NCBI GenBank assembly: GCA_963664815.2
Contig: CAXXHB010000002.1
Span: 512,001 to 576,000, forward strand
Direction: 5' to 3'
Source of the DNA: Spirochaetota bacterium
Lineage (GTDB): Bacteria; Spirochaetota; UBA4802; UBA5550
DNA: 64,000 bases
The position numbers and the translations under genes were made by a program. Below, piece by piece: positions 1,576 through 60,564 of this stretch (position 1 is its first letter; each line of letters starts with the position of its first letter). The notes beneath the pieces are model-generated. The model was not told the origin of the DNA and searched no databases. It was given only the letters and a program-made list of their open reading frames with translations.

Positions 1576-3495
1576 TTAATGATGTTTCTTTTTTCTTATT
1601 AATTTTATCAGTGCATCTTTGGCGGAATTTTTTACAAATCTGTCCGGATCGTTTTTTGAAATTTTTTTTATAGCCTCAATCACTTCGTTTATGTAACCTT
1701 CTGGCCCGGTGATACTTTCAAGTGAGTTTACAGTAAGTATTCTCACAGAGACTTCTTTATCGGTTAGAAGTTTTAAAAGATGAGGTATTGCATTTTCAGC
1801 GTCTATTCCTAATGAACCCAGACTTCTTATTGTGCTGCTTCTTACCATGTCAGATTTATCCTTCAGTGATTTTACAAGTAGATCGACAATCTCACTTTTC
1901 TCCGCGATATTTAATTCACTGAGACCTGCTATTGCGGCACTTCTTATTTCCTGGTTATCTTCCTTTATGGCTTCTATGAAGAGTTTAAAGGATTCATCCG
2001 GAGAAAGTATGTTAATAATGGATCGGGATGCATTTCTCCTTATTACTTTTATATTGTCACTTAGTCTTTCCCTGAGAAGCGGAACTGATTCTTTTGCCTT
2101 TTCTCCAAGATTTCCAAGTTTTATAACTGCATTTACTCTTTTCATCGGGTCTTCTGAATTAAGTTCAGGGAGTATTTCATAAAACTCGCGGGTGAACAAA
2201 AAATCCGGATCAGACTCAACTTCGATTTCTTTATGCAAAATGGCATCAGGTGTATAATGGTTGTCATCCTGATTATATTGTGAAACGTTCTTTACTGTTT
2301 TTTTATGTTTAAAAGATGTCATAAAGTCTTTTTTTTTGTATGTCTGAACCAGGGAGGAAAACTCCAGCGGATTTGATACAGTTATTGTTCCGAAATTGAA
2401 AGATAAATAACGGCAACTGAGGAGCTCTGTTATTTCTTCACTGTTTTCTTCTTGTGACAGTTCATTCATTTCAATCAGTTCATCGAGACCGAACTGAAGC
2501 AGGGAGGGTTTTTTTCTTTTTAATGAAACTCCATCTTCAAGCAGCTTTGATTCAAGAAATGTAAACAACCTTGTGATGGGATTTTTATAACTCATCTGGT
2601 TTAATCTGACATGATTAAACCAGAGTCTCTGGCTTATGGATGTTATAATTTTTTTTATAAGATCCGGTGAATGTTTTATATGACTTTTAAAGATGTTCAT
2701 ATCAACTGGTGTAATTCTGGTTCCGCCGAAACTTACAGCAGTGGCGCTTCTTGGTGATTTTGTAAGAAGAGCCAGTTCACCGAAAATATCACCTTCGCCA
2801 AGTACTGCAAGCAGCATATCCCTGTTTTTGCTTTGCTTAATTATTTTAACCCGCCCTTCTACAATAAAGAAGAGATTTTCACCGGGTTCATATTCGCAGA
2901 AAATAACTGCACCGTCTCTGTAAAGAAGATCTCCTTTTTCATTTTCAAAAAAAAATGAATGATTAGATGGATCATCAGTATCATCTATATATTTTTGAAT
3001 GTCAGATATGTTTTCCGAATCAGGGAATAATTGCATATACCTGTTAAATACATAATTAGCCGGAGTGTTGCAGCCATTTTCAAGATAATATTCACCAAGC
3101 CGGAGAAGGCTCAGGCTCTGAGGATAGATGAGGCTAATAGGCTTTATACCCATAAGCACATTGTCGTATTTCTGCAACGCATGAGAATAGGAGTTCATTA
3201 TCTTCATTGCAATTTCTGTTTTATCATTGAGCATTTTGAAAAGAAGTTCACGGTCTATATCAACAACGATAGTATCCTGTATTGCAACTGCACTGCTCAG
3301 TCTGGGTTTGCCGGAAAATGCAGAGATAAAACCAAAAAAATCACCCTCTCCGGCGTCTTTCAATGCCGATGACAGTATCGGGGAGGAACAGATATGCGAT
3401 ACTTTTCCTTTTTTTACAAGGAAGACAGAATTAGTTTCTTCATCTCCTTCAATAAAAATATATGAACCTTTTTTGAAATATCTTTCATCTTGCAT
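1576..3495 (-). CDS. Tandem cNMP-binding (Crp-like) protein with central TPR-like helix pair and C-terminal HEAT repeats
   Basis: Two cNMP barrels (GDFFGF..PRLSSA; GDIFGELAL..PRSATA), YVFNRYMQLFPDS TPR-like segment, and repeats of the type L.D....VR..A...L at the C-terminus. Confidence 0.8.
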   Translation of the reverse strand: MQDERYFKKGSYIFIEGDEETNSVFLVKKGKVSHICSSPILSSALKDAGEGDFFGFISAFSGKPRLSSAVAIQDTIVVDIDRELLFKMLNDKTEIAMKIMNSYSHALQKYDNVLMGIKPISLIYPQSLSLLRLGEYYLENGCNTPANYVFNRYMQLFPDSENISDIQKYIDDTDDPSNHSFFFENEKGDLLYRDGAVIFCEYEPGENLFFIVEGRVKIIKQSKNRDMLLAVLGEGDIFGELALLTKSPRSATAVSFGGTRITPVDMNIFKSHIKHSPDLIKKIITSISQRLWFNHVRLNQMSYKNPITRLFTFLESKLLEDGVSLKRKKPSLLQFGLDELIEMNELSQEENSEEITELLSCRYLSFNFGTITVSNPLEFSSLVQTYKKKDFMTSFKHKKTVKNVSQYNQDDNHYTPDAILHKEIEVESDPDFLFTREFYEILPELNSEDPMKRVNAVIKLGNLGEKAKESVPLLRERLSDNIKVIRRNASRSIINILSPDESFKLFIEAIKEDNQEIRSAAIAGLSELNIAEKSEIVDLLVKSLKDKSDMVRSSTIRSLGSLGIDAENAIPHLLKLLTDKEVSVRILTVNSLESITGPEGYINEVIEAIKKISKNDPDRFVKNSAKDALIKLIRKKKHH

Positions 3496-45803: not shown

Positions 45804-48800
45804 ATGAAAAAGAAATTATTACTTAATACAGGTCTTATCTTTGTTCTGGGATTTTCTGTATTCTGTTTAATGCAGAACTGGCGGATTCTTATTGGAAATC
45901 CCGCAGCGTCTAAAATTAAACTTGAGTTACCATCATTCGGATCTTCTGACGGGAAGGGAAATTATTATATCATTGATAAATCACGAAGGAGAGTTATATC
46001 CTCAGATAAAAATGGTATTGTTCTTTCAATTATTGATGGGGGGAGTAAAGATCCTGGAACTTTTTTTTATGCGAATGAAGTTATCGCTGATAAAGAGGGC
46101 AGGATATATATTCTCAACTGGGTTCTTGATAAATCCGGTTTTTTTATGGAACGTGAAGAGATACTTCGCTATAGCGTAGATGGTACGTTCGATAAAATAA
46201 TCTATTCAAAAACTTATGATGCAGAAAACAGAATTCCCACGCTCGTCCAGAGAGGACAATTAAGCGGACTTTTTTTCAGGGGAGATACAATCAACTGGTA
46301 TGATATAGACATTAAGGGTATATGGTCATATTCTTTGAATGTTTTGAATGGGACATTAAACCATATTCTTACAGTTGAACTCCATGATGCTAATCTGATT
46401 GTTTCAAGTATTGTATCTTCTGATAATGAAACAGTAATCTATGTCACAAAAAAAGGGGAGATTGTTGAAAAGAGAAAGGGTTTGTCTCCTGTTATAAGGT
46501 ATTCAGCGGATAGAGAGTCAGGAACTCTTTCCATACCATGGCATGTAGGGATTGATAAAACCGGGGTAATTTATTTTTCTGATATTGAAAAAAGAAAAAT
46601 AATGAAGATTTCAGATAAAGGTCAGATCTCTCCTGTTCTCTCGCGTGAAATTTTTGAATCTCAGAAGATAACAACGGATGAATTTACCTATTACAGATTT
46701 TCAGTTCTTCCGGACGGGCGGTTGACTACCTGCAATGACTCATATCTTGTTTCTCTTGACAGCAGCGGTAAAGTACTTATTCATACAGGTTTTTTGCAAT
46801 ATCCCGGATCAATGATTTTTAAAGCATTTATGATGTGGTTTATCTTTCTGGCCGGCATTATTTCATTTGTAGCATTAGGCTGGTTCTTTTTTACTGATGT
46901 AATGAACAGAAAAATACCTGACGTACTGCTTAAAGCTGCTGGTATTATTATAGTGATTGGTGTGTCGGCTGTACTTATTTCCAGTCTTATTGTGCAGAAC
47001 TTTTCATCCCGTTATCAGAAAGCAGCGCTAAATAAGATTGCCCAGATGGTACAGATAATTCCAAAAGTTATTGAAGCTTCCAATCTTGAAAAAATTACGC
47101 ATCAGAGTGATTTTCTTGGAAAGGATTACCGTGCAATACGGGAAGATCTTCTTACTTCGCTGAATTATAATAAAGATGAATGGAACAATAGTTATTATTT
47201 TGTTCTTTATAAGGTAATTAATGAAAGACTCTATGCTTTTATGTATCTCAACGGGGAAGTTGGTATTTATTATCCTTTATCATGGTTTGATGATCCTCAA
47301 AGTATTTATCACAGTGCATATAAAGGGGAAATTGTTACAGAATCTGTAAATGATCCATGGGGGAGCTGGCTTTACGGAGTGGGCCCAATCTGTAATAAAG
47401 AGGGTAAGGTAATAGCTTTGCTGGAAATCGGGACAGATTTTTACAGTTTTACGCAGGAGAATAACAGGCTAATCCGTGAAATTATACTTGATGTTGTGAC
47501 AATGCTGGTAATTTTTGTGCTTGCTATGATTGAAGCAACTTTTCTTATTGAAATGCTGAAGCAGAGAGAGAAACGGATCCGTCTCCTTGCAGAGGGTAAA
47601 ACTCTAAGAAAAGCAGATCATTATACCGATGCATTTCTTGCACGGCCTGTTACATTCATTTTCTTTACAGCAATTTCCATGTCTGTTGTATTTATCCCGC
47701 TGATGATGCAGAACTTTTATCATCCGGTTCCAGGTCTTTCAAAAAATCTTGTTCTTGGGCTGCCTATTTCATGTGAGATGCTTTTTTTCGGTATTTCCAG
47801 TATCTATTCAGGAACCCTGATTTCAAATCGTGGCTGGCGCTTTGTTGCACGTCTTGGCTTTCTGGTAACAGGAATCGGGCTGCTTGCTTCAGGATTGTCG
47901 AGCGGAATGATAACATTCCTTGCAGCGAGAGGGATAACAGGTCTTGGCGCTGGATTTTTCTTTATGTCCATGCGGGGATTAATTAACTGTGAAGGTATGC
48001 AGGAGATGCGGGGAGAGAGCTTTTCCAATTTTTATTCTGCAATGATTGTTGGTACTGCAATTGGAGCAGTTGTCGGAGGTATAATTGCTGATAAGCTTAG
48101 TTATTCTGCAGTATTTTATTTTGCCTTTGTAGTTCTTCTGGTGGCTTTTTTGTTTGATCTTTTATATTTCAGAAAAATGTCATTCATGGAAACTGCTGTC
48201 CATAAGATTCCTGAGAAGGGAGCTATTACATCAAGTATGAAAACATTTTTTTCAGATCCGCTTGTCATCGGTTTTTTTCTTCTTATTGTTATTCCGACAT
48301 ATGTAGCGAGTACATTTCTCACTTACTTTTTTCCGATTTTTGCAGAGGCAAACAAAGTTTCATCTTCGACAGTAGGACGTTTGTTTATATTAAACGGTGT
48401 ATTTGTCATTTATCTTGGTCCGGTTCTGAGCAGATTTTTCAGCAGTAAGATGAAATCCGGAAGTACTATGGTTTTCGGATCTGCCCTGTGGGCCTGTGCT
48501 CTTCTTATTTCGGCAATTACAGGCAGCTTTGCCGGAGCGGTTATGGCGCTTATTATTATGGGTATAACTGAAGGATTCTGCGTAAGCGCACAGAATAATT
48601 ATTTTCTGGACATGAAGGCATCCACCGCAATAGGAGAGGACCAGGCAATCGGATATTTTGAGATGGTGGGTAAATTTGCTGAAATGTTCGGGCCTATTTT
48701 ATTCAGTTTAGCGATTATTCTCGGTCAGCTTGCGGGGCTTTCCATAGTCGCGGCAGGAGTTTTCGGTTTTGCTGCATTATATATTTTTTTCGCAATGAGA

Positions 48801-48809
48801 AAAAATTGA
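45804..48809 (+). CDS. NHL/beta-propeller + Cache-like sensor module fused to a C-terminal MFS transporter (1001 aa)
   Basis: NHL-like D..G..YI.D repeats, TM pair, WGSWLYGVGPI...G.VIALLEIG Cache-like strand, then about 12 TM with ARGITGLGAG and G..IGAVVGGIIADKLSY; GGAGG RBS. Confidence 0.82.
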   Translation: MKKKLLLNTGLIFVLGFSVFCLMQNWRILIGNPAASKIKLELPSFGSSDGKGNYYIIDKSRRRVISSDKNGIVLSIIDGGSKDPGTFFYANEVIADKEGRIYILNWVLDKSGFFMEREEILRYSVDGTFDKIIYSKTYDAENRIPTLVQRGQLSGLFFRGDTINWYDIDIKGIWSYSLNVLNGTLNHILTVELHDANLIVSSIVSSDNETVIYVTKKGEIVEKRKGLSPVIRYSADRESGTLSIPWHVGIDKTGVIYFSDIEKRKIMKISDKGQISPVLSREIFESQKITTDEFTYYRFSVLPDGRLTTCNDSYLVSLDSSGKVLIHTGFLQYPGSMIFKAFMMWFIFLAGIISFVALGWFFFTDVMNRKIPDVLLKAAGIIIVIGVSAVLISSLIVQNFSSRYQKAALNKIAQMVQIIPKVIEASNLEKITHQSDFLGKDYRAIREDLLTSLNYNKDEWNNSYYFVLYKVINERLYAFMYLNGEVGIYYPLSWFDDPQSIYHSAYKGEIVTESVNDPWGSWLYGVGPICNKEGKVIALLEIGTDFYSFTQENNRLIREIILDVVTMLVIFVLAMIEATFLIEMLKQREKRIRLLAEGKTLRKADHYTDAFLARPVTFIFFTAISMSVVFIPLMMQNFYHPVPGLSKNLVLGLPISCEMLFFGISSIYSGTLISNRGWRFVARLGFLVTGIGLLASGLSSGMITFLAARGITGLGAGFFFMSMRGLINCEGMQEMRGESFSNFYSAMIVGTAIGAVVGGIIADKLSYSAVFYFAFVVLLVAFLFDLLYFRKMSFMETAVHKIPEKGAITSSMKTFFSDPLVIGFFLLIVIPTYVASTFLTYFFPIFAEANKVSSSTVGRLFILNGVFVIYLGPVLSRFFSSKMKSGSTMVFGSALWACALLISAITGSFAGAVMALIIMGITEGFCVSAQNNYFLDMKASTAIGEDQAIGYFEMVGKFAEMFGPILFSLAIILGQLAGLSIVAAGVFGFAALYIFFAMRKN

Positions 48810-48868
48810 ATTAACATCTCTCCGCAGAGGGAGGGGTTTAATATTAATGGATTGATTACAGGAGCAGT

Positions 48869-51658
48869 ATGAAAAGTAAGCATTATATTATGATGTCAGT
48901 ACTGGTTCTGGCAATTACAATATCAGGTATTATATCATATAAATTTTCTTCGAGTTTGTTTTCAAATCCCTTCAATAGAGATTTTCACTATGAAAATCCA
49001 TCCTACTCGATAACAGACAATGAGGGGAGTAATTATGTAATAGATCGCTCAATGAGGCGTATTGTTAAAATAGATGTACGTGGAAATCTTTCATGGATTA
49101 TTGAAGGGGGATCAAGGGAAAGAGGTTCTTTTTTTTATGCCTATGAGATAGCGGTGGACGAGCGAGGAATGCTTTATGTAATAAATGGTGTTCTTGATAA
49201 TGAAGGGTTTTTCATGGTAAGGGAGGAAATTCTCCGTTACAGTGCTGCCGGAGTTTTTGAAGAGGTTATATATTCAAAAAATTATAAATCTGAAGAAAGA
49301 GGTCCTTCTCTTGTTCAGCGCGGACAATTTCTTTCATTACATGCAGAGAAGCAGACAGTCGAATGGTTTGATATCGACAATCAAGGCATACAGTCAATAC
49401 GCGTTGTTATGCCTCAGAGATCTGTCGAAAGGAAGACCGGGGTCTTTTTAAAAAATGCCAACCTTCTTGTTTCAAGTGCAGTACGTCATTCAGATGGATC
49501 TGTCATCTATTGTACAAAAAAGGGAAAAATATATATATCTGCAGATCAGAGTGATGGATTATTATTATATTCCGCAGATGATCATAAAGAAGGTCTTTCA
49601 ATACCATGGTGGGTAGCAGTTGATAAAAAGGGGATTATATATTTTACTGATTTAGGAAGCCGCTCTGTATTGCGTTTAAATCCTGATAAAACTCCGGATA
49701 CAATTTTATCCAAAGAAATAATAGAAAAAGCTGGATTACAGACTGGTTCTTTTATCTATTACAGGTTCAGCATAAATAAAGATGGAATGATTACAACCTG
49801 TAACGATTATTATACTGTGGTTTTGTCAGCTGATGGGAAAAGCATTGTACGCTATTCAGATGGCGGCAGAATTTCTTTAAGTAATGTAATATTAAAAGTT
49901 TCAGGCTGGTCTGTTTTTATCATAGGAACAATATTTGTAATAATAGCTGCAATATTTGGTTATATTAAAATTCTTAACCGGCGTATTCCGCTTATGATAA
50001 AGCAGGTTCTGATTTTTGTACCAATGCTTATTGTATCAGTTGCATTACCCGCAAACATGATTATAGAAGATTTTTCAGAGCGTTATAAAGAAGAATTAAA
50101 CAAAAAAATTTCTCAGATGGTACAGGTGGCACCTAAAGTAATTAATCCTGATGATCTTAAACGGATAATCAAACATGAAGATTATATGAGTGATTCATAT
50201 AACAGAGTCAGGGGTTCACTGCTTGAGGCATTTAATTACAACAATGATGACTGGAACAGGGGATTCTATTTTGCAATCTATCGGGTTTATCAGGATAATA
50301 TTTATGGATGCATGTATCTTAACGGAGGAATAGGAATATATTATCCTTTTACATATTTTGATGATCCTCAAAGCATATATCGCAACGCATATAAAGGGCA
50401 AATTGTTACTGAATCGCTGAGTGATGCATTTGGAAGCTGGTTGTACGGTGTAGGTCCCATATATGACAGGGATGGAAAGGTGACGGCGATTATAGAAGTC
50501 GGAACAGATCTTTACAGTTATACCCAGGCGAATAACAGGCTTATTATGAAAATGCTGGTTCGTATATTTCTTATTACAGTTCTTTTTGTTATACTTTTAA
50601 TGATTGTAACCTATCTATTACTTGTCTCGATTAAACGACTCAGCTCCGGTGTAACCAGACTTTCTCAGGGGGAGTGGGAAACTAAAGTAAGTATTGGTAA
50701 ACGGAACGATGAGGTTTCGGACCTTGCGCAGGGTTTCAACAGGATGTCGGAGTATATACTGAATTATATTAATGAAATAGTAAATCTCAATAAAGGATAT
50801 CAGCGTTTTGTGCCTGAACAGTTTCTGCATTATCTGGACAAGGAGAACGTTACACAGGTTCAGCTTGGCGATCAGGTACACAAAGTGATGACTGTAATGT
50901 TTTCAGATATCCGTTCATTTACTACACTTTCAGAGAAAATGACTCCGAAGGAAAACTTTGATTTTCTGAATTCCTACCTTAAGCATGTTGGGCCGGTAAT
51001 ACGGGAAAACAACGGGTTTATTGATAAATATATTGGTGATGCTGTTATGGCGCTGTTCCCTCACTCAGCGGATGATGCCCTGGAGGCAGCTATAGGTATT
51101 TTTGAAAATCTTCATGATTTCAATGAAAACCGCGAGAAGATAGGGGAACCCCCTATTGAAATAGGATTGGGTCTTCATACCGGGCCTCTTATGATGGGAA
51201 TTATTGGTGAGGATGAAAGGATGGAAGGGACTGTGATCTCCGATAATGTGAACTTTGCTTCACGTCTGGAGGGACTTACAAAGCACTACGGAGCACGTAT
51301 ACTTATAAGTGAAATGACATATAAACAGCTCGCTCATCCGGAACGTTATCTTATACGGAACCTTGGAAAAGTTAAGGTTAAAGGGAAGAATGAACCTGTT
51401 TCAGTATATGAGGTAATGGATCCCCTTCCCTTCAAACAGAAATCAATGAAAATTAAAACAAAAGATGTTCTTGAAAAAGGGATAGCGCTTTATCAGCATA
51501 AACGGTTTTCAGAGGCGCTTGAAAAATTTAATAAAATTCTGGCTGTTGATAAAAATGATAAAATTGTAAACAAGTATTACAATATCTGCAATGTATGCGC
51601 GGAAAACCCACCTGACGCAGTTGATTGGGATGGTACTCTTGAAATGAGGGAAAAATGA
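48869..51658 (+). CDS. NHL/beta-propeller + Cache-like + HAMP + class III adenylate cyclase with C-terminal TPR-like helices (929 aa)
   Basis: N-terminus paralogous to the previous gene; HAMP RNDEVSDLAQGFNRM; FSDIRSFT, DKYIGD, TVISDNVNFASRLEG. Confidence 0.9.
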   Translation: MKSKHYIMMSVLVLAITISGIISYKFSSSLFSNPFNRDFHYENPSYSITDNEGSNYVIDRSMRRIVKIDVRGNLSWIIEGGSRERGSFFYAYEIAVDERGMLYVINGVLDNEGFFMVREEILRYSAAGVFEEVIYSKNYKSEERGPSLVQRGQFLSLHAEKQTVEWFDIDNQGIQSIRVVMPQRSVERKTGVFLKNANLLVSSAVRHSDGSVIYCTKKGKIYISADQSDGLLLYSADDHKEGLSIPWWVAVDKKGIIYFTDLGSRSVLRLNPDKTPDTILSKEIIEKAGLQTGSFIYYRFSINKDGMITTCNDYYTVVLSADGKSIVRYSDGGRISLSNVILKVSGWSVFIIGTIFVIIAAIFGYIKILNRRIPLMIKQVLIFVPMLIVSVALPANMIIEDFSERYKEELNKKISQMVQVAPKVINPDDLKRIIKHEDYMSDSYNRVRGSLLEAFNYNNDDWNRGFYFAIYRVYQDNIYGCMYLNGGIGIYYPFTYFDDPQSIYRNAYKGQIVTESLSDAFGSWLYGVGPIYDRDGKVTAIIEVGTDLYSYTQANNRLIMKMLVRIFLITVLFVILLMIVTYLLLVSIKRLSSGVTRLSQGEWETKVSIGKRNDEVSDLAQGFNRMSEYILNYINEIVNLNKGYQRFVPEQFLHYLDKENVTQVQLGDQVHKVMTVMFSDIRSFTTLSEKMTPKENFDFLNSYLKHVGPVIRENNGFIDKYIGDAVMALFPHSADDALEAAIGIFENLHDFNENREKIGEPPIEIGLGLHTGPLMMGIIGEDERMEGTVISDNVNFASRLEGLTKHYGARILISEMTYKQLAHPERYLIRNLGKVKVKGKNEPVSVYEVMDPLPFKQKSMKIKTKDVLEKGIALYQHKRFSEALEKFNKILAVDKNDKIVNKYYNICNVCAENPPDAVDWDGTLEMREK

Positions 51659-52779
51659 ACGGTGAAACTGACCCGCTGAAGAAAACTATTTTAAAGAAAA
51701 AATCTCTTAGGGTAGTAGCTTATCTGGGGCTTGACAGGCCTAACAGGTGCATTGATTATGGTGAACTGCTGTTAAAAAAATTAATTGCAAGTCATCATAC
51801 AATTGCAGGTCTTGTAATTCATCCATCAGACCGGCTTGCTGACCTTGCCCGTAAATACTCTATACCATATATCAGCATACCACAGGAACTCCTTCAACCT
51901 GCGGATAAAATTAAAAAAGCATTGGCAGAAAATCAGCAGTTTATTGAATTTTATAAAATCTGGCTTGGGCATATACGTTCGTTTGGAGCTGATATAGGTA
52001 TTACCATGTGGGCATTATGGATCCCTGCAGAGATCTTTTCAATGCCTCCAATGGGGTTTATAAATTATCATCCTGCCCCTCTTCCGCAGATGAGAGGAAT
52101 GGAACCGGATACCTTTGCAATTCTTGAAGGGCGTAAGGAGATATTCGGAGCTGTCCATAAAGTAAATCATGCATTTGACTGCGGTGAAATTGTATCATGG
52201 ACAAGACATATTAAAATTCACCGGTATGATACTCCGGTTTCTGTTCTTGAGAATCTTAATCGGGAGGGGATCAGCACAATCATACATGTTTTAAACTCGT
52301 TTGCCGATGGAACAGCAAAAGGAGTTCCACAGTATACTGGTGAAGGGACAAGGACAACGCGTGATATGGCGCGTAAAGCTTCATTTATTGACTGGAGGTC
52401 GGATACTGTTGAAATTATTGACCGCAAGCTGAGAGCGTTTTGCGGTCAGGATATAGGTATCAGACTCAAAGCAGAATACCAGGGAACCATTCATAATATA
52501 GTTGATCTTGAAGGATATCATGGGAATTTTTCGGGTAAACCGGGGGATGTACTGGGGTTATATTGCGGGAAAGGTTTTTTTAAAGATCAGCCTGTTATTC
52601 GGGTACTGGATGGCATTATTATTGCACATCTTGGAAAAGTGATTACTCCGCTTTCGTATTCATCAATTTTTTATAATGAATGTCCGCAGGAAAAACTGAT
52701 TCTTCCGGGCAGGAGAAAGAGAATCACAAATCACAAAATGGTAATCCGCAGCATAACGGGATTAAATCAGAAGAATTAA
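51655..52779 (+). CDS. Formyltransferase-fold (Fmt-like) protein
   Basis: GFINYHPAPLPQMRG and AFDCGEI carry the Asn/His/Asp triad; IDW and KPGDV C-domain; ATGA overlap with the cyclase gene. Confidence 0.8.
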   Translation: MNGETDPLKKTILKKKSLRVVAYLGLDRPNRCIDYGELLLKKLIASHHTIAGLVIHPSDRLADLARKYSIPYISIPQELLQPADKIKKALAENQQFIEFYKIWLGHIRSFGADIGITMWALWIPAEIFSMPPMGFINYHPAPLPQMRGMEPDTFAILEGRKEIFGAVHKVNHAFDCGEIVSWTRHIKIHRYDTPVSVLENLNREGISTIIHVLNSFADGTAKGVPQYTGEGTRTTRDMARKASFIDWRSDTVEIIDRKLRAFCGQDIGIRLKAEYQGTIHNIVDLEGYHGNFSGKPGDVLGLYCGKGFFKDQPVIRVLDGIIIAHLGKVITPLSYSSIFYNECPQEKLILPGRRKRITNHKMVIRSITGLNQKN

Positions 52780-52796
52780 TTTATCATGGAAATAAT

Positions 52797-54104
52797 CTAT
52801 TTCTCAGACTGCTGAAGGAAAGCATCAGGGAAATAACCTATTATTGTTTTAACACTGTTATTTGATATTGCCTTTGAGTCATGAATTATGTGTGAATCTT
52901 TGCCTGAGTTTATGGTCAGAGGGATGGCAATTTTTTTATTGCTCCATCCAAGCCATGAGTATTCCGGCAGGAACCGCACAAATCTGTATTTGTCTGAAGG
53001 ATTCATATCCTTCCTGTAGGCATTTCTGGCGTCTTTTATTTCATCGGTGGTGAAATCCACTCCCTTGTATCCTCCGTAGGCGAAAACACCGACGCCAAGA
53101 CCGACTGTTTCAGCGGATTCACCATAAAAACCAAGCGCCATAATTCCAACACCGGCAGCTCCAATAAGAGTAAAAATCAAAAGACCTCCTGCAATGCCGA
53201 ATAATATCCGGGATGTCATTTTTGTTGAACTTACTCCGAATTTTTCAGCATACTTAACATCATCGATAGTATCAGCTATTTCATTGTTACGCGTTTTATG
53301 CCTTGCATACCAACCCGAAGCATCGGGAGTAATAAAAAGATTCATTTTTATGTTTTCATCAATAGTAAGAGAAAGATGCGATTTGTTTCCCATGGCTTTG
53401 AAATCAACATCCCTGAAACCGCGAAGGAATTTATCACCCTTGGGATTCCAGTACGGCTGGTATCCTATACCTCCGAGGATCAGTGTCAGATTCGCCGGAG
53501 GTTCCTCCATTGAGATAAGCTCCCTGATCCATTTCATTGAAGGATTTAAAACAACTGCACGCCTGAAGTCGGCACGGGCATCATCCCACTCGCCGCACAT
53601 ATTCCACAGAACTCCACATATAACTCGCATAAATGCGTCATCGAATCTCCCTTCTTCACTGAACTTATTGCTTAAGAGTATGGCCGCTTTTTTTACCTCA
53701 ACACGGGCTTCAGAAAATTCTCCCCGAAGAGAATAACCCCAGCTTAACAGAAAATGCATCCATATGATTTCATGTTCAGAAGCATAGTAGCCTTCAGGAG
53801 TTTCTACAAAAAAAAAGGATTTTGCCTCGCGGGAAATTTTATATCGTATCTGCTTATCAATTTTTACTGCATAAGCTGCAAGTTTGTCTATGTCAGGATT
53901 TCCTGTTAAAAGATTAAGATATGTTCTTTCCATAACCGTAATGAACCCATTTCCTTCACCAGTTGGAAGAGATTCAATGGCTCTTTTAATATCGCCTGAT
54001 ATCATTGCAGATGATGAAAAATAGTATGAACTTTTTGTGTTTAATGTTGAACAGTTAAGAGTCATTAAAGACAGAATAAGGATTATTGAGATTATTCTAT
54101 TCAT
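52797..54104 (-). CDS. Helical lipoprotein (COG3014-like)
   Basis: Lipobox TLNC; YYASEHEIIWMHFL..Y....EARVE, DDARADFRRA. Confidence 0.6.
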   Translation of the reverse strand: MNRIISIILILSLMTLNCSTLNTKSSYYFSSSAMISGDIKRAIESLPTGEGNGFITVMERTYLNLLTGNPDIDKLAAYAVKIDKQIRYKISREAKSFFFVETPEGYYASEHEIIWMHFLLSWGYSLRGEFSEARVEVKKAAILLSNKFSEEGRFDDAFMRVICGVLWNMCGEWDDARADFRRAVVLNPSMKWIRELISMEEPPANLTLILGGIGYQPYWNPKGDKFLRGFRDVDFKAMGNKSHLSLTIDENIKMNLFITPDASGWYARHKTRNNEIADTIDDVKYAEKFGVSSTKMTSRILFGIAGGLLIFTLIGAAGVGIMALGFYGESAETVGLGVGVFAYGGYKGVDFTTDEIKDARNAYRKDMNPSDKYRFVRFLPEYSWLGWSNKKIAIPLTINSGKDSHIIHDSKAISNNSVKTIIGYFPDAFLQQSEK

Positions 54105-54318: not shown

Positions 54319-54365
54319 ATTATTCTTATATTGACAAATCAGTTTTTTGTCAATATAAGAATAAT
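54319..54365. promoter_or_regulatory. Perfect 20-bp inverted repeat forming TTGACA-N17-TATAAG on both strands
   Basis: ATTATTCTTATATTGACAAA-tcagttt-TTTGTCAATATAAGAATAAT between divergent genes. Confidence 0.7.
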
Positions 54366-54828: not shown

Positions 54829-55608
54829 ATGAGAAATATAAAATATGGTTTCTGTGCTTTAATGATAATGTTTACTGCATGCGCGAGTTTACCCCCTGAA
54901 GTTCCGCATGGAGAAAACAGCTCAATAATCGGGATTTCAGTCAGGGTTAACAGAATAATGTTCTCACCAAATCCCCACGCTGTTTATTTCATTAAACTGA
55001 ATGAAAAAGACAATATATATATGAGTGATGGTTCTTTCCTGAAATCAAATTTCCATGAAGGGGATCAGTATTATTTTCTTAATGCAGAACCCGGACGCTA
55101 CATTGCAGTTGCGGCATTTAAAGGAAGCGAAACAACAGACGGCCGTGGTAATACTGTAAAAGAGTCACCTGACGATACTGTATATTACTTTCCTCTTGAT
55201 ATGGTACAGTTCACGGATACAAAATTCAAAACAGGTGAAATAGCATTCCTGGGGAAATATACGTTAGATTTGCCTGTCAATTTTGAATATGGCCTTAAAA
55301 ATCCTGATGAATCACAGGTGTATTATTGTAAAAGGCTTCAGCCTAATAAAGCTGAGCCAAGTGCGCTTGGCTGCTGTATAGAGACTCTAATTGCCATTGG
55401 CGGGGGCACGGGTGAAACTGCTGAAGCTGTAAAACTGAAAATGAAAGACAAAAACAGGAAGGCAGAAACTGAGTTCTGGACAAAGGCAAAGAAACATTTC
55501 AGTGAAAGTTCAATACAGGGCGTGCAGGATAAAGAAGAATCAGATAAAATTAAAATCTGGCTGAATATAATAGACAGAAGGCTGAAAAAGATTTCTGAGG
55601 ATCAGTAG
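54829..55608 (+). CDS. Hypothetical lipoprotein
   Basis: AAGGAG RBS; lipobox FTAC; YFLNAEPGRY..VAA, GEIAFLG. Confidence 0.7.
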   Translation: MRNIKYGFCALMIMFTACASLPPEVPHGENSSIIGISVRVNRIMFSPNPHAVYFIKLNEKDNIYMSDGSFLKSNFHEGDQYYFLNAEPGRYIAVAAFKGSETTDGRGNTVKESPDDTVYYFPLDMVQFTDTKFKTGEIAFLGKYTLDLPVNFEYGLKNPDESQVYYCKRLQPNKAEPSALGCCIETLIAIGGGTGETAEAVKLKMKDKNRKAETEFWTKAKKHFSESSIQGVQDKEESDKIKIWLNIIDRRLKKISEDQ

Positions 55609-55718: not shown

Positions 55719-58403
55719 TTATACTTTTTCCAGCTTTACTGCACAGGCTTTATATTCGGCAGTTTTTGTCTCGGGATCAAAAACGTTGTTTGTAAGCCAG
55801 TTGGCATTGCCTTCCCGGAAATGAAATGACATCCACACAAGTCCTGCAGATACTTCATCAGTAACCCTTGCCCGCACTTTCACTGAACCGCGGCGCGATG
55901 TAACCTTAACATAATCGTGGTGTTTTATGCCGAGCTTTTCAGCATCAGCGGGGGATATGTCTGCGGTCTCTTCGGAGAGCATCATGTCAAGACCTGATCG
56001 GCCGGTCTGTGTCCTGGTATGGTAGTGGTAAAGCCTGCGTCCTGTGCTGAGAATAAATGGATATTCAATATCAGTTACTTCCGCAGGCGGAGTCCATTCA
56101 ACTGAAGCGAAGAGACCCTTCCCTCGCGTGAATTTTCCGTTTTTGTGCAGAAATTTTGTACCCGGATGTTCCGTGTCAGGGCATGGCCACTGAAGACCGT
56201 CATTTTCGAGTCTGGAATATTTTATGCCTGACAGTGACGGAGCGAGTGTTGAAACTTCCTTATCCCAAATATCCTGCGCGCTTTCAGATTTCCATTCGTA
56301 TCCCATCCGCCTTGCTAATTCCCTGAATACCCACCAGTTCGGCATTGCTATACCTGGCGCATCTTTGATTTTCCTTACCCTGTTTACCCGGCGTTCGCTG
56401 CTGGTGAATGTCCCTTCATCCTCACACCATGCGGCAGCAGGGAAAATTACATGTGCGTACTTTGTCGTATCAGTGTGGAATATATCGTTACATACAATGA
56501 ATTCAGCAGATTCCAGTTCATGATGCACGTGATTCATGTTAGGTTCAGTGTTGGCCAGGTTCTCCCCGAATATGTAAAATCCCCTTATTTTCTTTAACGG
56601 GAGAGATGCCATCATGTCAGGTATCATTATACCAGGTTTTTCCGGAAGATTTGAAACGTCCCATGCTCTCATGAACTTTTCACTGGCAGCAGGATCGTCA
56701 ACTCTCTGGTATCCCGGGAACAGATTCGGTAAAGCGCCCATGTCGCAGGCACCCTGTACATTGTTCTGACCCCTGAGTGGGTTTACACCAGCGCTCTCCA
56801 TCCCCATATTTCCAAGCAGCATCTGGAGGTTTGCTATGGATATGACGTTGTTTTTGCCGCATGTATGTTCAGTAATGCCAAGTGTGTAGCAGACCATTCC
56901 AGGTTTCACTGATGCCATTGTGCGCGCGATAACTCTGATGATATCCGGGTCCACACCGCATATCTCTGACGATCTTTCCGGTGTATAATCCATAACTGTG
57001 GATTTCATTTCATCAAAATGCTCTGTGTTTTCTTCAACGAACTTTTTATCGTATAAATTTTCTGTTATGAGTACATGCATGATTCCGTTAAGGAACGCAA
57101 CGTCAGATCCTGCACGGATTTCTGCGAAGATATCTGCTCTTCGCGCAAGCTCATGCCTGCGCGGATCCACAACAATAATTTTAGCGCCTCGTTTTTTTGC
57201 CCGCTTGACGAAGTATGAAGCAACCGGATGAGCCTCGGTCATGTTTGTCCCTATAAGAAAAAACAGTCTGGCCTTTTCGAACTCAGAAAAAGAATTTGTC
57301 ATAGCCCCTGAACCGAAGGATGCTGCCAGACCGGCAACAGTCGGGGCGTGTCAGGTTCGGGCACAGTGATCAATATTGTTTGTGCCCAGCACCCCCCTGA
57401 AAAATTTCTGCATGTTATACGAGTCTTCGTTGGTGCTCCTCGCGCAGCTGACCCCTGCCAGAGCATCCGGCCCTGATTCATCAATTATCTGTCTGAATTT
57501 TGACGCAACAAGATTGAGCGCCTCATCCCATCCTGCCTCTCTGAAACTTTCCCCTTCCCTGATCAGAGGCGTTTTAAGTCTGTCGTCTGAATATATGAAA
57601 TCGTATCCGTAACGTCCTTTCACACAGAGGTGCCCCCTGTTGGGCTCTGCTCCCTCTGATCCTGTGACACGGATGATACGGTCACCCTTTACGTGCAGTT
57701 CCAGCTGGCACCCTACCCCGCAGTAAGGACATGTAGTACGTACTTTTTTTCTTTCCCACACGCGTCCCATACCTGCACCCTTTTTTTCGATAAGAGCACC
57801 AACAGGGCAGAGCTGGACGCATTCACCGCATTGGACACATGAAGATTCACCCATTGGCTTGTCGTCATCACATATAACCTTTGTAAGATCACCTCTGTAG
57901 CCGAAATCGAGCACCTCATTCACAACAAGATTGTTGCATCCCTCAACGCATCTTCCGCATTTGATGCATTTGTCCTGGTCGCGTCTTATAAAAACGGCAG
58001 AGTCATCTTTCGCAGAAAGCTCTTCTGCGATAAATGCCGGGGCTTCGATCCCCAGCCTGTACGCGGCATTCTGAAGCTCGCAGTCTCCGTTCATTTCGCA
58101 TGAGATACAGTTGTGTTTTCCATTCGAGAGTAGCAGGTTAACTATTAGTTTGCGGGCTTCCATTATACGGTTACTTTCTGTTGTTACCTCCATTCCCGGA
58201 AACGGAAGAAGAGAGCATGCAGTCTGAAGGTTCTGCATGCCTTCAACTTCTATAACGCAGATTCTGCACACTCCGGCCTGTCCTGTTCTCTGATGGTGAC
58301 AAAGCGATGGTATGTAGATTCCGTTTTCTCTTGCAGACTGAAGGACAGTTTTTTCTTTATCAACCGGGATTGCTGTTTTATTTATAAAAAATATATCGTT
58401 CAT
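55719..58403 (-). CDS. fdhA: Selenocysteine-containing Mo/W formate dehydrogenase alpha subunit (894 aa; joins two ORF-track entries)
   Basis: [2Fe-2S] and 2x[4Fe-4S] N-terminus, CPYCGVGC, DHCART-TGA-HAPTVAGL..SFGSGAMTN in frame, PLRGQNNVQG. Confidence 0.95.
57321..57339 (-). promoter_or_regulatory. Bacterial SECIS element
   Basis: UGUUGCC-GGUCU-GGCAGCA hairpin starting 11 nt after the in-frame UGA (57351-57353). Confidence 0.88.
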
Positions 58404-58424: not shown

Positions 58425-60143
58425 CTAACATTTTATAAGATCATCAAACTCAGTCCTGAATTTTGAGATCATCGCAATTATCGGTACGGTGAAGGCTTCG
58501 CCCATAGGACAGATTGTAAGTCCACGGATGCTGCTGCAGGTGCGAAGAATGAGATCTATGTCATCCATTTTTCCTCTGCCCGTGACAATTGCACCAAGCC
58601 TGTTTTTTATAATACGAGTTCCCTCTCTGCAGGGGACACACTGGCCGCATGATTCATGATGGTAGAATTCAATTGTCCTCAGTGCAAGTTCCGGAATAGA
58701 CACGAAATCATTTATAACAATGACAGCACCTGAACCGAGAGATGTCCCTTTTTTCAGGCACGAGTCGTAATCGAGTATAAGCCCGTCAGCTTCACCGGCA
58801 GTAATAATTGCCGAAGAGAGACCTCCGGGAATAACTCCTTTAAGGTTTCCTTTCACTCCGCCGGCTGCATTAATCAAGACATTAAGAGGAGTACCAAGCG
58901 GATATTCAAAGATCCCGGGTTTGTTCACATGGCCTGAAATGCCGAAGAGTTTCGGTCCGGAGTTGTTCACTGTTCCAATATTTCTGAAAGCTGCTGCACT
59001 TTTTAAAATAATAAAAGGGACGCATGAAAGTGTTTCAACATTGTTAATCACAGTGGGGAAGCCATATAACCCGCTGTTTGCCGGAAATGGCGGCTTCATC
59101 CTGGGATTACCCCTTTTACCTTCGAGAGATTCTATCTGTGCAGTTTCATCACCGCACACGTATGAACCACCGCCACGATGCACAACAATCTCTGTATGGC
59201 TGAGCAATCCGGCATTCTTCGCTTCGTTTATTGCAGTTTCAAGAATATCTGCGATCCAAGAAAATTCACCGCGTATATATATAAATGCTTTTTCTGCATT
59301 TACCGCACTGGCGCTTATGGCAATCCCCTCAATAAGGAGGTGAGGGTTAAATTCCATTATCTGTCTGTCTTTAAACGTTCCAGGCTCACCTTCATCAGCG
59401 TTGCATATGAGGTAAACAGGACGCTTGTCGTCTTTCGGGAGATAAGACCACTTCAGACCCGCAGGGAAACCGGCACCACCGCGGCCACGTAAGCCAGATT
59501 CTTTAACTTCATCAATAATATCCTCCGGCTTCATGGACAGTGCCTTTGAGAGTGCGCTGTACCCTCCATGTTGTATATAATATGCAAGAGATCTGCATTC
59601 CGGGTTAGTTCTGTCATTGAGGAGTATCCCGAAATGCGATACAACATTTATCGAGGGATCATTAACGGGATCAGCTCCATTTCTCAGCGCGTCTATAAGC
59701 GCATCAATTTTCTCAATGGTCATGTTCTCAAAATAGCGGTCATTTACCTGCAAAACAGGCCCTGTTGCGGATGAACCGAGATCCTGCACAGAAGAGAGTG
59801 TAAACATCCCGTCTGCAGTGGTTTCGCCGTCGCTTATATAAAGTTTGTTGCAGAGATGTTCCATTATTGCATCAGCTCCATGCAGAAATCCAGGTACGCA
59901 TGTATCGAGCTGCAGGTGGTACTTTCCCACCGGCTTTGTGTTGAACATCGTGTAGTAGGTCGATATGCCGTAAACACTGCTCATGCTAATGCCTGTAATA
60001 GCGGCAGCCTTTGACCTGGCATTGCTGTCAAGATAATTGCTGTTTTCTTTCTGCAAATGCTGTAAAACAGGCATAATAGCAGATTTTTTTTCCGGATATT
60101 TATCTGAAATAAATGTATAGGTATTATTTTTTTCTTTTTTCAT
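58425..60143 (-). CDS. NuoE-NuoF fusion, NAD(H)/FMN-binding diaphorase subunit of the formate dehydrogenase
   Basis: TYYTMF...P.GKYH NuoE-like domain; GRGGAGFP, CNADEGEPGTFKDR, YVCGDE, ESCGQCVPCREG...CPMG; start 60143 or 60188. Confidence 0.9.
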   Translation of the reverse strand: MKKEKNNTYTFISDKYPEKKSAIMPVLQHLQKENSNYLDSNARSKAAAITGISMSSVYGISTYYTMFNTKPVGKYHLQLDTCVPGFLHGADAIMEHLCNKLYISDGETTADGMFTLSSVQDLGSSATGPVLQVNDRYFENMTIEKIDALIDALRNGADPVNDPSINVVSHFGILLNDRTNPECRSLAYYIQHGGYSALSKALSMKPEDIIDEVKESGLRGRGGAGFPAGLKWSYLPKDDKRPVYLICNADEGEPGTFKDRQIMEFNPHLLIEGIAISASAVNAEKAFIYIRGEFSWIADILETAINEAKNAGLLSHTEIVVHRGGGSYVCGDETAQIESLEGKRGNPRMKPPFPANSGLYGFPTVINNVETLSCVPFIILKSAAAFRNIGTVNNSGPKLFGISGHVNKPGIFEYPLGTPLNVLINAAGGVKGNLKGVIPGGLSSAIITAGEADGLILDYDSCLKKGTSLGSGAVIVINDFVSIPELALRTIEFYHHESCGQCVPCREGTRIIKNRLGAIVTGRGKMDDIDLILRTCSSIRGLTICPMGEAFTVPIIAMISKFRTEFDDLIKC

Positions 60144-60564
60144 AAGGGTCTTTTTTTTAAATATATTAATTTCTTTTATCAATTTCATCAGCGGAATATG
60201 TCAATGGTTTTACAAAAGACGATATAAAATATGATCAATAATATACACTGTGCAATGAATTTAATAAAGTCAAACATGTTCAGGTGAATCAGCCAAAAGT
60301 ACAATGCAGAAGCATTTATTCAATATCTTAAACCGGGTAGTTCTTCAAATAGGCTGCTTCTTGCAGAAAAAAGCGAAGACTTTACGCAAAAAGAAATTCA
60401 TTTTATCGGCTGCTTTTAATTAATTTGACAATGGGATAAAATTTTTTTGGAAAATTATTAAATTAAATATGACTAAAAAGTCATTTATGTTTATCATTTG
60501 ACAATTCCAAGGTATAAATATACCAATTATCAGGATTATTTTATATGCAATATGGAAATCTTTT

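Follow-up and report, generated by a model that had tools for sequence, protein, structure and literature searches.

We analyzed a 64,000-nt stretch of DNA, called the window here, from a Spirochaetota bacterium (GenBank assembly GCA_963664815.2, contig CAXXHB010000002.1, positions 512,001 to 576,000 of the forward strand), focusing on three adjacent genes that encode two receptors with the same sensor module and a putative modifying enzyme. The source genome is 5.2 Mb in three contigs and is 96% complete. All gene coordinates are window positions, and the whole trio lies on the + strand. Gene 1 (45804..48809) encodes a 1001-aa protein in which the sensor module is followed by an MFS transporter. 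Gene 2 (48869..51658) encodes a 929-aa protein with the same module followed by a HAMP domain, a class III adenylate cyclase and a TPR-like tail, and gene 3 (51655..52779) encodes a divergent 374-aa formyltransferase of the Fmt/ArnA/FDH type. These assignments come from the open reading frames (ORFs), their translations and Pfam searches, together with BLASTP of gene 1 against gene 2. The C-terminal domains that an earlier note had read from the sequence are also what Pfam returns: MFS_1 in gene 1, HAMP, cyclase and a sub-threshold TPR_2 in gene 2, and Formyl_trans_N at residues 74–212 of gene 3. The ATGA overlap of the gene 2 stop with the gene 3 start, described in the same note, is present in the sequence. 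Genes 1 and 2 are separated by a 59-nt spacer with GGAG ahead of the cyclase start. The 523-bp spacer upstream of the trio contains no credible small ORF for a peptide precursor, and promoter-like sites are not enriched (43 versus 36 ± 6 in shuffled sequences). A search for sequencing runs gave five with DNA, from two studies, and none with RNA.

The shared N-terminal module is collinear in the two receptors. BLASTP aligns residues 29–582 of gene 1 with residues 30–584 of gene 2, with 236 of 555 identities (43%), 64% positives, a single gap and an E value of 2e-157. All the matching blocks quoted in the earlier note fall within this alignment: GFFMEREEILRYS/GFFMVREEILRYS, LVQRGQ, LSIPWHV/LSIPWWV, FDDPQSIY..AYKG.IVTES and GSWLYGVGPI. 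Genes 1 and 2 carry the only copies of the module in the source genome; a third match (E 5.8e-4) spans just 75 residues. A hydropathy scan finds four transmembrane (TM) segments in each module.

Neither ectodomain has an above-threshold Pfam or NCBIfam model. By sequence, the first gives only sub-threshold Pfam matches to TEN_NHL and SGL, and residues ~400–560 of genes 1 and 2 match no Pfam family at E ≤ 0.1 and no NCBIfam family. AlphaFold models and Foldseek searches bear out the fold that had been proposed, a propeller, a TM hairpin, a Cache domain and a final TM helix. The AlphaFold2 model of gene 2 residues 1–590, built with 13 homologues, has a predicted local distance difference test score (pLDDT) of 85.5 and a predicted template modeling score (pTM) of 0.85. 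It runs from TM1 through 24 strands in six blades plus closing strands to the TM hairpin, a helix-then-sheet domain and the last TM helix. The pTM of 0.85 for the whole 590-aa module suggests that the ectodomain pair and the TM bundle are held in a fixed arrangement. The best Foldseek matches of the gene 2 beta-propeller (residues 38–335; 48980..49873) are the NHL domains of TRIM71, Thin, Brat and Lin41, at E values from 2e-10 to 1e-8. The six-bladed, NHL-type propeller of gene 1 is extracytoplasmic and was placed at about residues 37–333 (45912..46802) by alignment to its modeled twin and from the twin's NHL matches.

The second ectodomain of gene 2 (residues 401–547; 50069..50509) was also folded alone with its TM helices (pLDDT 79.6). 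It has a PDC fold, with a long N-terminal helix, a five-stranded antiparallel sheet and flanking helices, and lies between two TM helices. Foldseek matches this region to WalK (9a5d, E 1.3e-07), an sCache formate chemoreceptor (8py0, 5.7e-06), CitA (8biy, 1e-05), DcuS (3by8, 3.5e-04) and KinD; it is therefore a single Cache/PDC domain. The equivalent extracytoplasmic domain of gene 1, at about residues 399–545 (46998..47438), was placed from alignments, the fold of the twin and hydropathy, and sits between TM segments 379–397 and 564–582. The predicted topology puts both ectodomains outside, with the HAMP domain or the MFS N-terminus inside.

Beyond the module, the two receptors continue into different domains. 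The MFS_1 domain of gene 1 (PF07690) covers residues 616–964 (47649..48695) with an E value of 2.8e-27 and 96 bits against a cut-off of 33.4, and it matches positions 4–347 of the 347-position profile. Kyte-Doolittle hydropathy shows at least 10 separate peaks across residues 613–983. Named NCBIfam MFS subfamilies (MdtG, Bcr/CflA, EmrB and others) do not reach their cut-offs, the best scoring 30 bits against 131 and 28 against 571; these weak matches are DHA1-like and far under the cut-offs. The sole solved match in the PDB is sialin (E 0.004), and the ESM Atlas returns generic MFS clusters.

In gene 2, the HAMP domain spans residues 582–630 (50612..50758; PF00672, E 3.7e-08, 34 bits against a cut-off of 25) and the cyclase catalytic domain residues 670–843 (50876..51397; Guanylate_cyc, PF00211, E 2.2e-20, 73.5 bits against 21.9). 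The closest solved chain is Pseudomonas aeruginosa CyaB (3r5g, E 3e-27). Class III cyclases use two metal-binding Asp residues, a substrate-specifying Lys and Thr/Asp, and a transition-state Asn and Arg, and a homodimeric mechanism is expected of them. The earlier note had seen the Lys and Thr that specify ATP; in fact all seven catalytic and specificity residues are present (D680, K720, D724, R784, T788, N795 and R799). Gene 2 is predicted to be a catalytically complete adenylate cyclase, class IIIb-like and presumably homodimeric. The C-terminal, TPR-like tail of ~75 aa (51422..51655) gives a TPR_2 match under the cut-off at residues 870–897 (E 0.0037). A profile of this tail matches 55 of 57 cyclase-type family proteins, the two misses being truncated. 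The source genome has 10 cyclase-family matches and 25 matches to the cyclic-nucleotide-monophosphate-binding (cNMP-binding) family PF00027, 23 of them over the cut-off; cyclic AMP (cAMP) is therefore in use in this genome, and signaling by it is extensive. One 639-aa ORF with two cNMP-binding domains lies within the window itself (1576..3495, − strand; domains at G000:C2:514686-515486, window 2686..3486).

Gene 3 matches Formyl_trans_N (PF00551) with an E value of 4e-12 and 46.7 bits against a cut-off of 26.1. An Asn-His-Asp catalytic triad is known for Fmt/PurN enzymes; in gene 3, the first two residues are N137 and H139, which fall on the INVH motif of Fmt, and the third is D175, which falls on the Asp of the DTG motif. 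All three are invariant in 10 of 10 orthologues. The solved relatives of gene 3 are Fmt (the methionyl-tRNA formyltransferases being nearest), FDH and ArnA. Gene 3 scores 71.1 bits against the methionyl-tRNA formyltransferase equivalog TIGR00460, whose cut-off of 201.5 is not reached. A separate, normal-size fmt-like gene is found elsewhere in the source genome (G000:C3:571984-572412, in a 329-aa frame).

We then asked how widely the trio is kept. In an even sample of 301 Spirochaetota genomes from 126 genera, the module is present in 19 genomes and 15 genera. An orthologue of gene 3 occurs in eight of the 301, and these are exactly the eight with two adjacent module genes; it is found in 0 of the other 293. 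Among the 41 nearest genomes, 11 have the module and six have the orthologue (E ≤ 1e-74), all six with twins, as against 0 of the 35 others; those without the orthologue carry only a ~313-aa fmt-like gene. The order MFS fusion, cyclase, formyltransferase recurs in the same genus and another family (L022, L023 and L024), in L031–L034, in a Cardiobacteriales metagenome-assembled genome (MAG; L040) and in four more Spirochaetota families (L099–L102). In Chromatium weissei (L035), the formyltransferase overlaps the start of a lone MFS fusion. The earlier note had made its proposal depend on the trio being found elsewhere, and here it is, with exact phyletic co-occurrence. Could the three genes be merely co-regulated neighbors, the formyltransferase having an unrelated metabolic role and the twins being two receptors for one cue? 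In favor of this, some family members have no transferase neighbor. However, it would leave unexplained the exact co-occurrence of formyltransferase and twins in both samples, the fixed gene order with overlapping or abutting junctions across several Spirochaetota families and a gammaproteobacterial MAG, and the separate housekeeping fmt-like gene kept by the source genome. We consider that explanation very improbable and are confident that the trio is a real functional unit.

The sensor module itself belongs to a large family. A profile of 13 N-modules finds 717 cluster representatives (50% identity) at E ≤ 1e-30. We classified the outputs of 170 module proteins using the trio's own domains as queries. 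The module is joined to an MFS domain in 79, and the module or its Cache part is joined to a cyclase in 71; a further 15 have the propeller and Cache domain with another C-terminus or none. Pfam was run on 13 of these 15, giving HAMP-histidine kinase (2), HAMP-SpoIIE (3), kinase-receiver-SpoIIE (3) and HAMP-MCP (1) proteins as well as fragments, so that nine of the 13 have a histidine kinase, SpoIIE/PP2C or MCP output. By its domain architecture, the module is a true modular sensor, because it is also found with histidine-kinase, PP2C and MCP outputs. The MFS fusion is the commonest partner of the module among the classified proteins and the least expected one for a sensor that otherwise feeds standard signaling outputs.

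Comparison of the twins with each other bears on what they might sense. In three pairs from the same genus, twin identity is 53–60% in the Cache domain and 43–45% in the propeller, and only 17–21% in TM1 and 14–22% in the TM hairpin. Because the twin ectodomains are far more alike than the twin TM segments, the pattern fits twins that share one ligand or kind of ligand. In a quick tree, the MFS-linked and cyclase-linked modules of the formyltransferase-type systems form sister groups with support of 94 and 97. Taken together, the pattern is what one would expect if an ancient duplication had stayed tied to a single kind of ligand, and it is no demonstration of a complex. In the same quick tree, formyltransferase-type N-modules group apart from those of sister systems with GNAT or DUF2156 proteins (see below), with weak support of 76 and weak deep nodes.

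The earlier note had raised the possibility of a heteromeric receptor. In its obligate form, the twins would pair through their N-modules, and carrier flux or occupancy would control cAMP synthesis, as in co-sensing pairs. Such pairing would accommodate the findings that the two genes always lie side by side, that both have been retained since the old duplication and that their ectodomains are still 43–60% identical. Yet the TM helices, a likely dimer interface, are the least conserved part, and the cyclase that partners the MFS fusion in the GNAT variant of this genus no longer has any propeller. An obligate heteromer is unlikely for the family because each half stands alone in whole genomes: the MFS fusion in Chromatium weissei and a planctomycete MAG, and the cyclase form in Paenibacillus sinopodophylli and Cohnella cholangitidis, as well as in several Spirochaetota genomes with a single module gene. 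We therefore regard this explanation of the trio as improbable.

The note had also proposed that the formyltransferase makes or modifies the transported signal. The idea of a modifying enzyme beside the receptors gains support, as a GNAT or DUF2156 gene replaces the formyltransferase in sister systems and likewise overlaps or abuts a receptor gene. In the GNAT variant (L026–L028, L042, L047, L050 and L052), the stop of a single MFS fusion is overlapped by a 165–173-aa GNAT gene, beside a 555-aa cyclase with a Cache domain and without a propeller. In the DUF2156 variant (L025, L043 and L044), the order is cyclase, MFS fusion and DUF2156 (PF09924) protein, and in Desulfocucumis (L038) it is cyclase-like gene, GNAT and MFS fusion. 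Across 62 loci found by a Cache-domain motif, 40 of them of a related Paenibacillaceae type, 48 have a gene for one of the three kinds of transferase (formyltransferase, GNAT or DUF2156) within 200 bp of a receptor gene and in the same orientation, and the receptor-transferase junctions are often 4-nt overlaps. Four of the remaining 14 loci end at a contig edge, three are truncated or contain broken genes but have a transferase close by, and seven are truly without one.

Among solved proteins, the closest to the GNAT profile is 2r7h (E 9e-12), a putative D-alanine N-acetyltransferase, and next come the N-alpha-acetyltransferases Naa10, Naa30, Ard1 and RimI. The DUF2156 protein has a single solved relative at E ≤ 0.01, the soluble hypothetical protein 2hqy (E 1.6e-38). 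Another explanation is that the system modifies the cell envelope: the transferase would add a formyl, acetyl or aminoacyl group to a lipid or lipid-linked envelope precursor, much as the Arn pathway and MprF do, the MFS domain would flip the lipid, and the ectodomains would sense the state of the envelope or cationic agents. The PF09924 family is that of the phosphatidylglycerol lysyltransferase C-terminal domain, and in one variant such a gene overlaps the stop of the MFS fusion, like a split MprF; gene 3 also matches ArnA formyltransferase domains (E 9e-08), with NCBIfam matches in addition. However, the solved relative of the DUF2156 protein is 2hqy and not MprF, and the loci inspected contain no glycosyltransferase, deformylase or other Arn-type gene. 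Cache domains, moreover, typically bind small solutes. We regard envelope modification as an improbable role for the trio.

Alanine-racemase-like genes were seen downstream of family members at two loci (L091:313-7893 and L051:9917-13838). In L091, genes for an ABC_sub_bind-domain protein and for an MFS protein of 837 aa, extended at length at its N-terminus, come after the racemase-like gene. These neighbors are a weak hint of amino-acid substrates.

As a whole, the trio is best explained as a self-contained cassette to sense, transport and modify one kind of compound, a reading that we hold tentatively and a little short of probable. The twins would be paralogous inner-membrane receptors with the same ectodomain assembly threaded through four TM helices, most likely binding the same or closely related extracytoplasmic small molecules. 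In the cyclase twin, ligand occupancy would be passed through TM4 and the HAMP domain to the adenylate cyclase and raise cAMP. In the MFS twin, the ectodomain appears wired to a carrier of the 12-TM type, which it might gate or for which it might capture substrate. Gene 3 would act as a cytoplasmic formyl-tetrahydrofolate-type transferase that N-formylates an amine on the cargo, or on the form that the cargo takes inside the cell; as a working guess, the cargo would be an amino acid or short peptide and its alpha-amino group the one formylated. In the sister systems, the transferase slot is taken by an N-alpha-acetyltransferase-like GNAT or a DUF2156 protein with a tandem GNAT fold. We lean slightly to export as the direction of transport because the weak family likeness is to DHA1-type exporters. 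Ligand, cargo, export direction and gating are all inferred here, and the substrate class, an amino acid or peptide alpha-amine, is a guess drawn from distant similarities. Worded in this way, as sensing, transport and amine capping, the mechanism is possible at the same level as the cassette or slightly below. A fuller statement would make these proteins a new class of receptor-wired carriers: a propeller and Cache domain on an MFS carrier that is ligand-gated or ligand-capturing, a twin that reports the ligand as cAMP and an interchangeable alpha-amine capping enzyme would together "sense, cap and move" amino acids or small peptides, possibly D-amino acids. We think this statement rather unlikely in its full form.

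Several observations weigh against the cassette and the mechanism. Seven loci (L048, L051, L054, L061, L064, L071 and L076) are without a transferase, and other family receptors adjoin unrelated genes such as QueH and Peptidase_C39_2. The 62-locus counts are not a census, and kin among the loci are not independent. The likeness of the GNAT proteins and formyltransferases to alpha-amine-modifying enzymes is distant, and a common substrate class is a guess because the three kinds of transferase differ in fold and in donor. The NCBIfam, PDB and ESM Atlas searches gave no substrate clue from the MFS domain. The full set of seven residues is present in 17 of 58 aligned family cyclase domains; one more has Lys in place of R784, and another is truncated. 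In 38 of the 58 (Bacillota: Paenibacillaceae and Desulfocucumis L038), the two metal-binding Asp residues have been lost, with N/A at their positions, and these proteins cannot make the cAMP through which the conserved partnership would have to work. The loss makes cAMP a weaker candidate for the central logic of the family at large.

The 38 pseudo-cyclase domains are also without the Arg, with the residue pattern N/K/A/R/N. Paenibacillus, Cohnella and related Bacillota loci (L045–L089, e.g., L058:9929-16282) carry the sensor module on such a cyclase-like domain. In 32 of the 40 Paenibacillaceae-type loci, a GNAT gene follows the pseudo-cyclase gene. In 34 of the 40, there is then a protein of ~1010–1040 aa that matches the L058 MFS/TLC-HEAT-cNMP-binding protein (by phmmer, with Pfam checked in three). 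These loci look like a pseudo-cyclase receptor beside a cyclic-nucleotide-binding transporter. We considered whether cAMP from the sensor cyclase feeds the neighboring cNMP-binding domain and rejected this, as those cyclase domains are without both metal-binding Asp residues. The transporter was likewise rejected as an orthologue of the gene 1 MFS domain (BLASTP E 6.1).

The pseudo-cyclases are relevant to one more explanation, in which the transferase acts on a protein, either the receptor or a signaling target, to cap its N-terminus or an alpha-amine with a formyl, acetyl or aminoacyl group, and the MFS domain is a sensing or scaffold domain and no carrier. The dead Paenibacillaceae cyclase-like domain still keeps its GNAT neighbor and its C-terminal tail, the next-best solved relatives of the GNAT profile are protein N-alpha-acetyltransferases, and the best formyltransferase relatives act on the alpha-amine of Met-tRNA. 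However, all of these similarities are distant and far under the family cut-offs, and the match of the MFS domain extends over the full MFS_1 profile, without a sign of decay. No fused receptor-transferase protein was found, nor any fused formyltransferase form longer than 655 aa, which is weak evidence. We judge a protein target very unlikely and continue to favor the cassette that senses, transports and modifies a small compound.

The earlier note knew of no system with this layout, and in the full-text literature searched we saw neither the module nor the MFS fusion nor the trio described. Gene 2 resembles receptor-type class III cyclases, such as CyaB with its catalytic domain in 3r5g, in having HAMP and a complete catalytic domain with Lys/Thr specificity. 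It differs from them by its propeller, TM hairpin and Cache sensor outside Pfam and NCBIfam models, by its family-specific ~75-aa TPR-like tail and by a paralogue that carries the same sensor on a transporter. DcuS-DctA and UhpC-UhpB are co-sensing pairs of transporter and sensor or transporter-derived receptors. Sd-Amt1 is reported to be a sensor Amt-like protein (PMC11152129) and has a HAMP-linked second-messenger output. In all of these, as proposed for the trio, transport and signaling for one compound are coupled at the membrane. There, however, the carrier is the sensor, whereas the trio has a separate receptor ectodomain ahead of the carrier, and physical pairing of its twins is not supported as obligatory.

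For the transferase, Blt-BltD of Bacillus subtilis, an operon of an MFS exporter and a GNAT, and MprF, which combines synthase and flippase, offer a similar logic to that proposed for gene 3: a cytoplasmic acyl or aminoacyl transferase genetically coupled to the membrane carrier of its substrate or product. Unlike the trio, they are without a receptor ectodomain and without a cyclase, and the sequence comparisons made here place the trio and its sister systems in neither group. Solute-binding proteins are reported to feed transporters and also to stimulate receptors (PMC9602780). The likeness is that the same extracytoplasmic module appears to inform a transporter and a signaling enzyme; in the trio, however, there are two copies of the module, each covalently joined to its own output, in place of a single soluble protein serving both. 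The transporter, moreover, is MFS and not ABC or TRAP. NTT-HEAT-cNBD fusion transporters, in which cNBD denotes a cyclic-nucleotide-binding domain, are said to be of unknown function by Major et al. 2017 (PMC5381601). They are comparable in that an MFS-superfamily transporter again stands beside a sensor and a transferase in the Paenibacillaceae-type loci, but that transporter is not detectably related to the gene 1 MFS domain, is without the sensor module and adjoins a cyclase-like domain without metal-binding residues. Modular bacterial sensors are well known; a receptor ectodomain on an MFS carrier, beside a paralogue that turns the same input into cAMP, is undescribed in the literature searched.

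If the ectodomain gates or feeds the carrier, gene 1 would show in simple form how nature puts secondary transport under the control of a ligand, and the trio would offer a direct way to study how transport and second-messenger signaling are coordinated for one compound. The family is large and can be tested at the bench because it reaches cultured Paenibacillus, Cohnella, Chromatium and Desulfocucumis. The interchangeable formyl, acetyl or DUF2156 slot gives a handle on the substrate. The dead cyclase variants beside cNMP-binding transporters form a separate puzzle.

Receptor genes are broken up into several ORFs at three loci. Two are in Salinispira MAGs, L046, where this affects both the MFS and the cyclase twin, and L071, where it affects the MFS fusion; in the third, L066, it affects a cyclase-type gene. 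Formyltransferase pieces lie near the split genes in L046 and a GNAT near that in L066. These split genes are either pseudogenes or frameshift errors of assembly.

Elsewhere in the window, two ORFs on the − strand (57351..58403 and 55719..57302) together form one 894-aa formate-dehydrogenase-type molybdopterin enzyme (55719..58403). Codon 351 of this enzyme is an in-frame TGA that lies within CARTUHAP and is likely a selenocysteine site. NuoF-like and 2Fe-2S genes adjoin it (58425..60188). Between the trio and this cluster, a 20-bp inverted repeat with a 7-nt loop (54319..54365) lies in an AT-rich spacer between two ORFs, one ending at 54104 and the other starting at 54829, and was picked up on both strands by a terminator scan.

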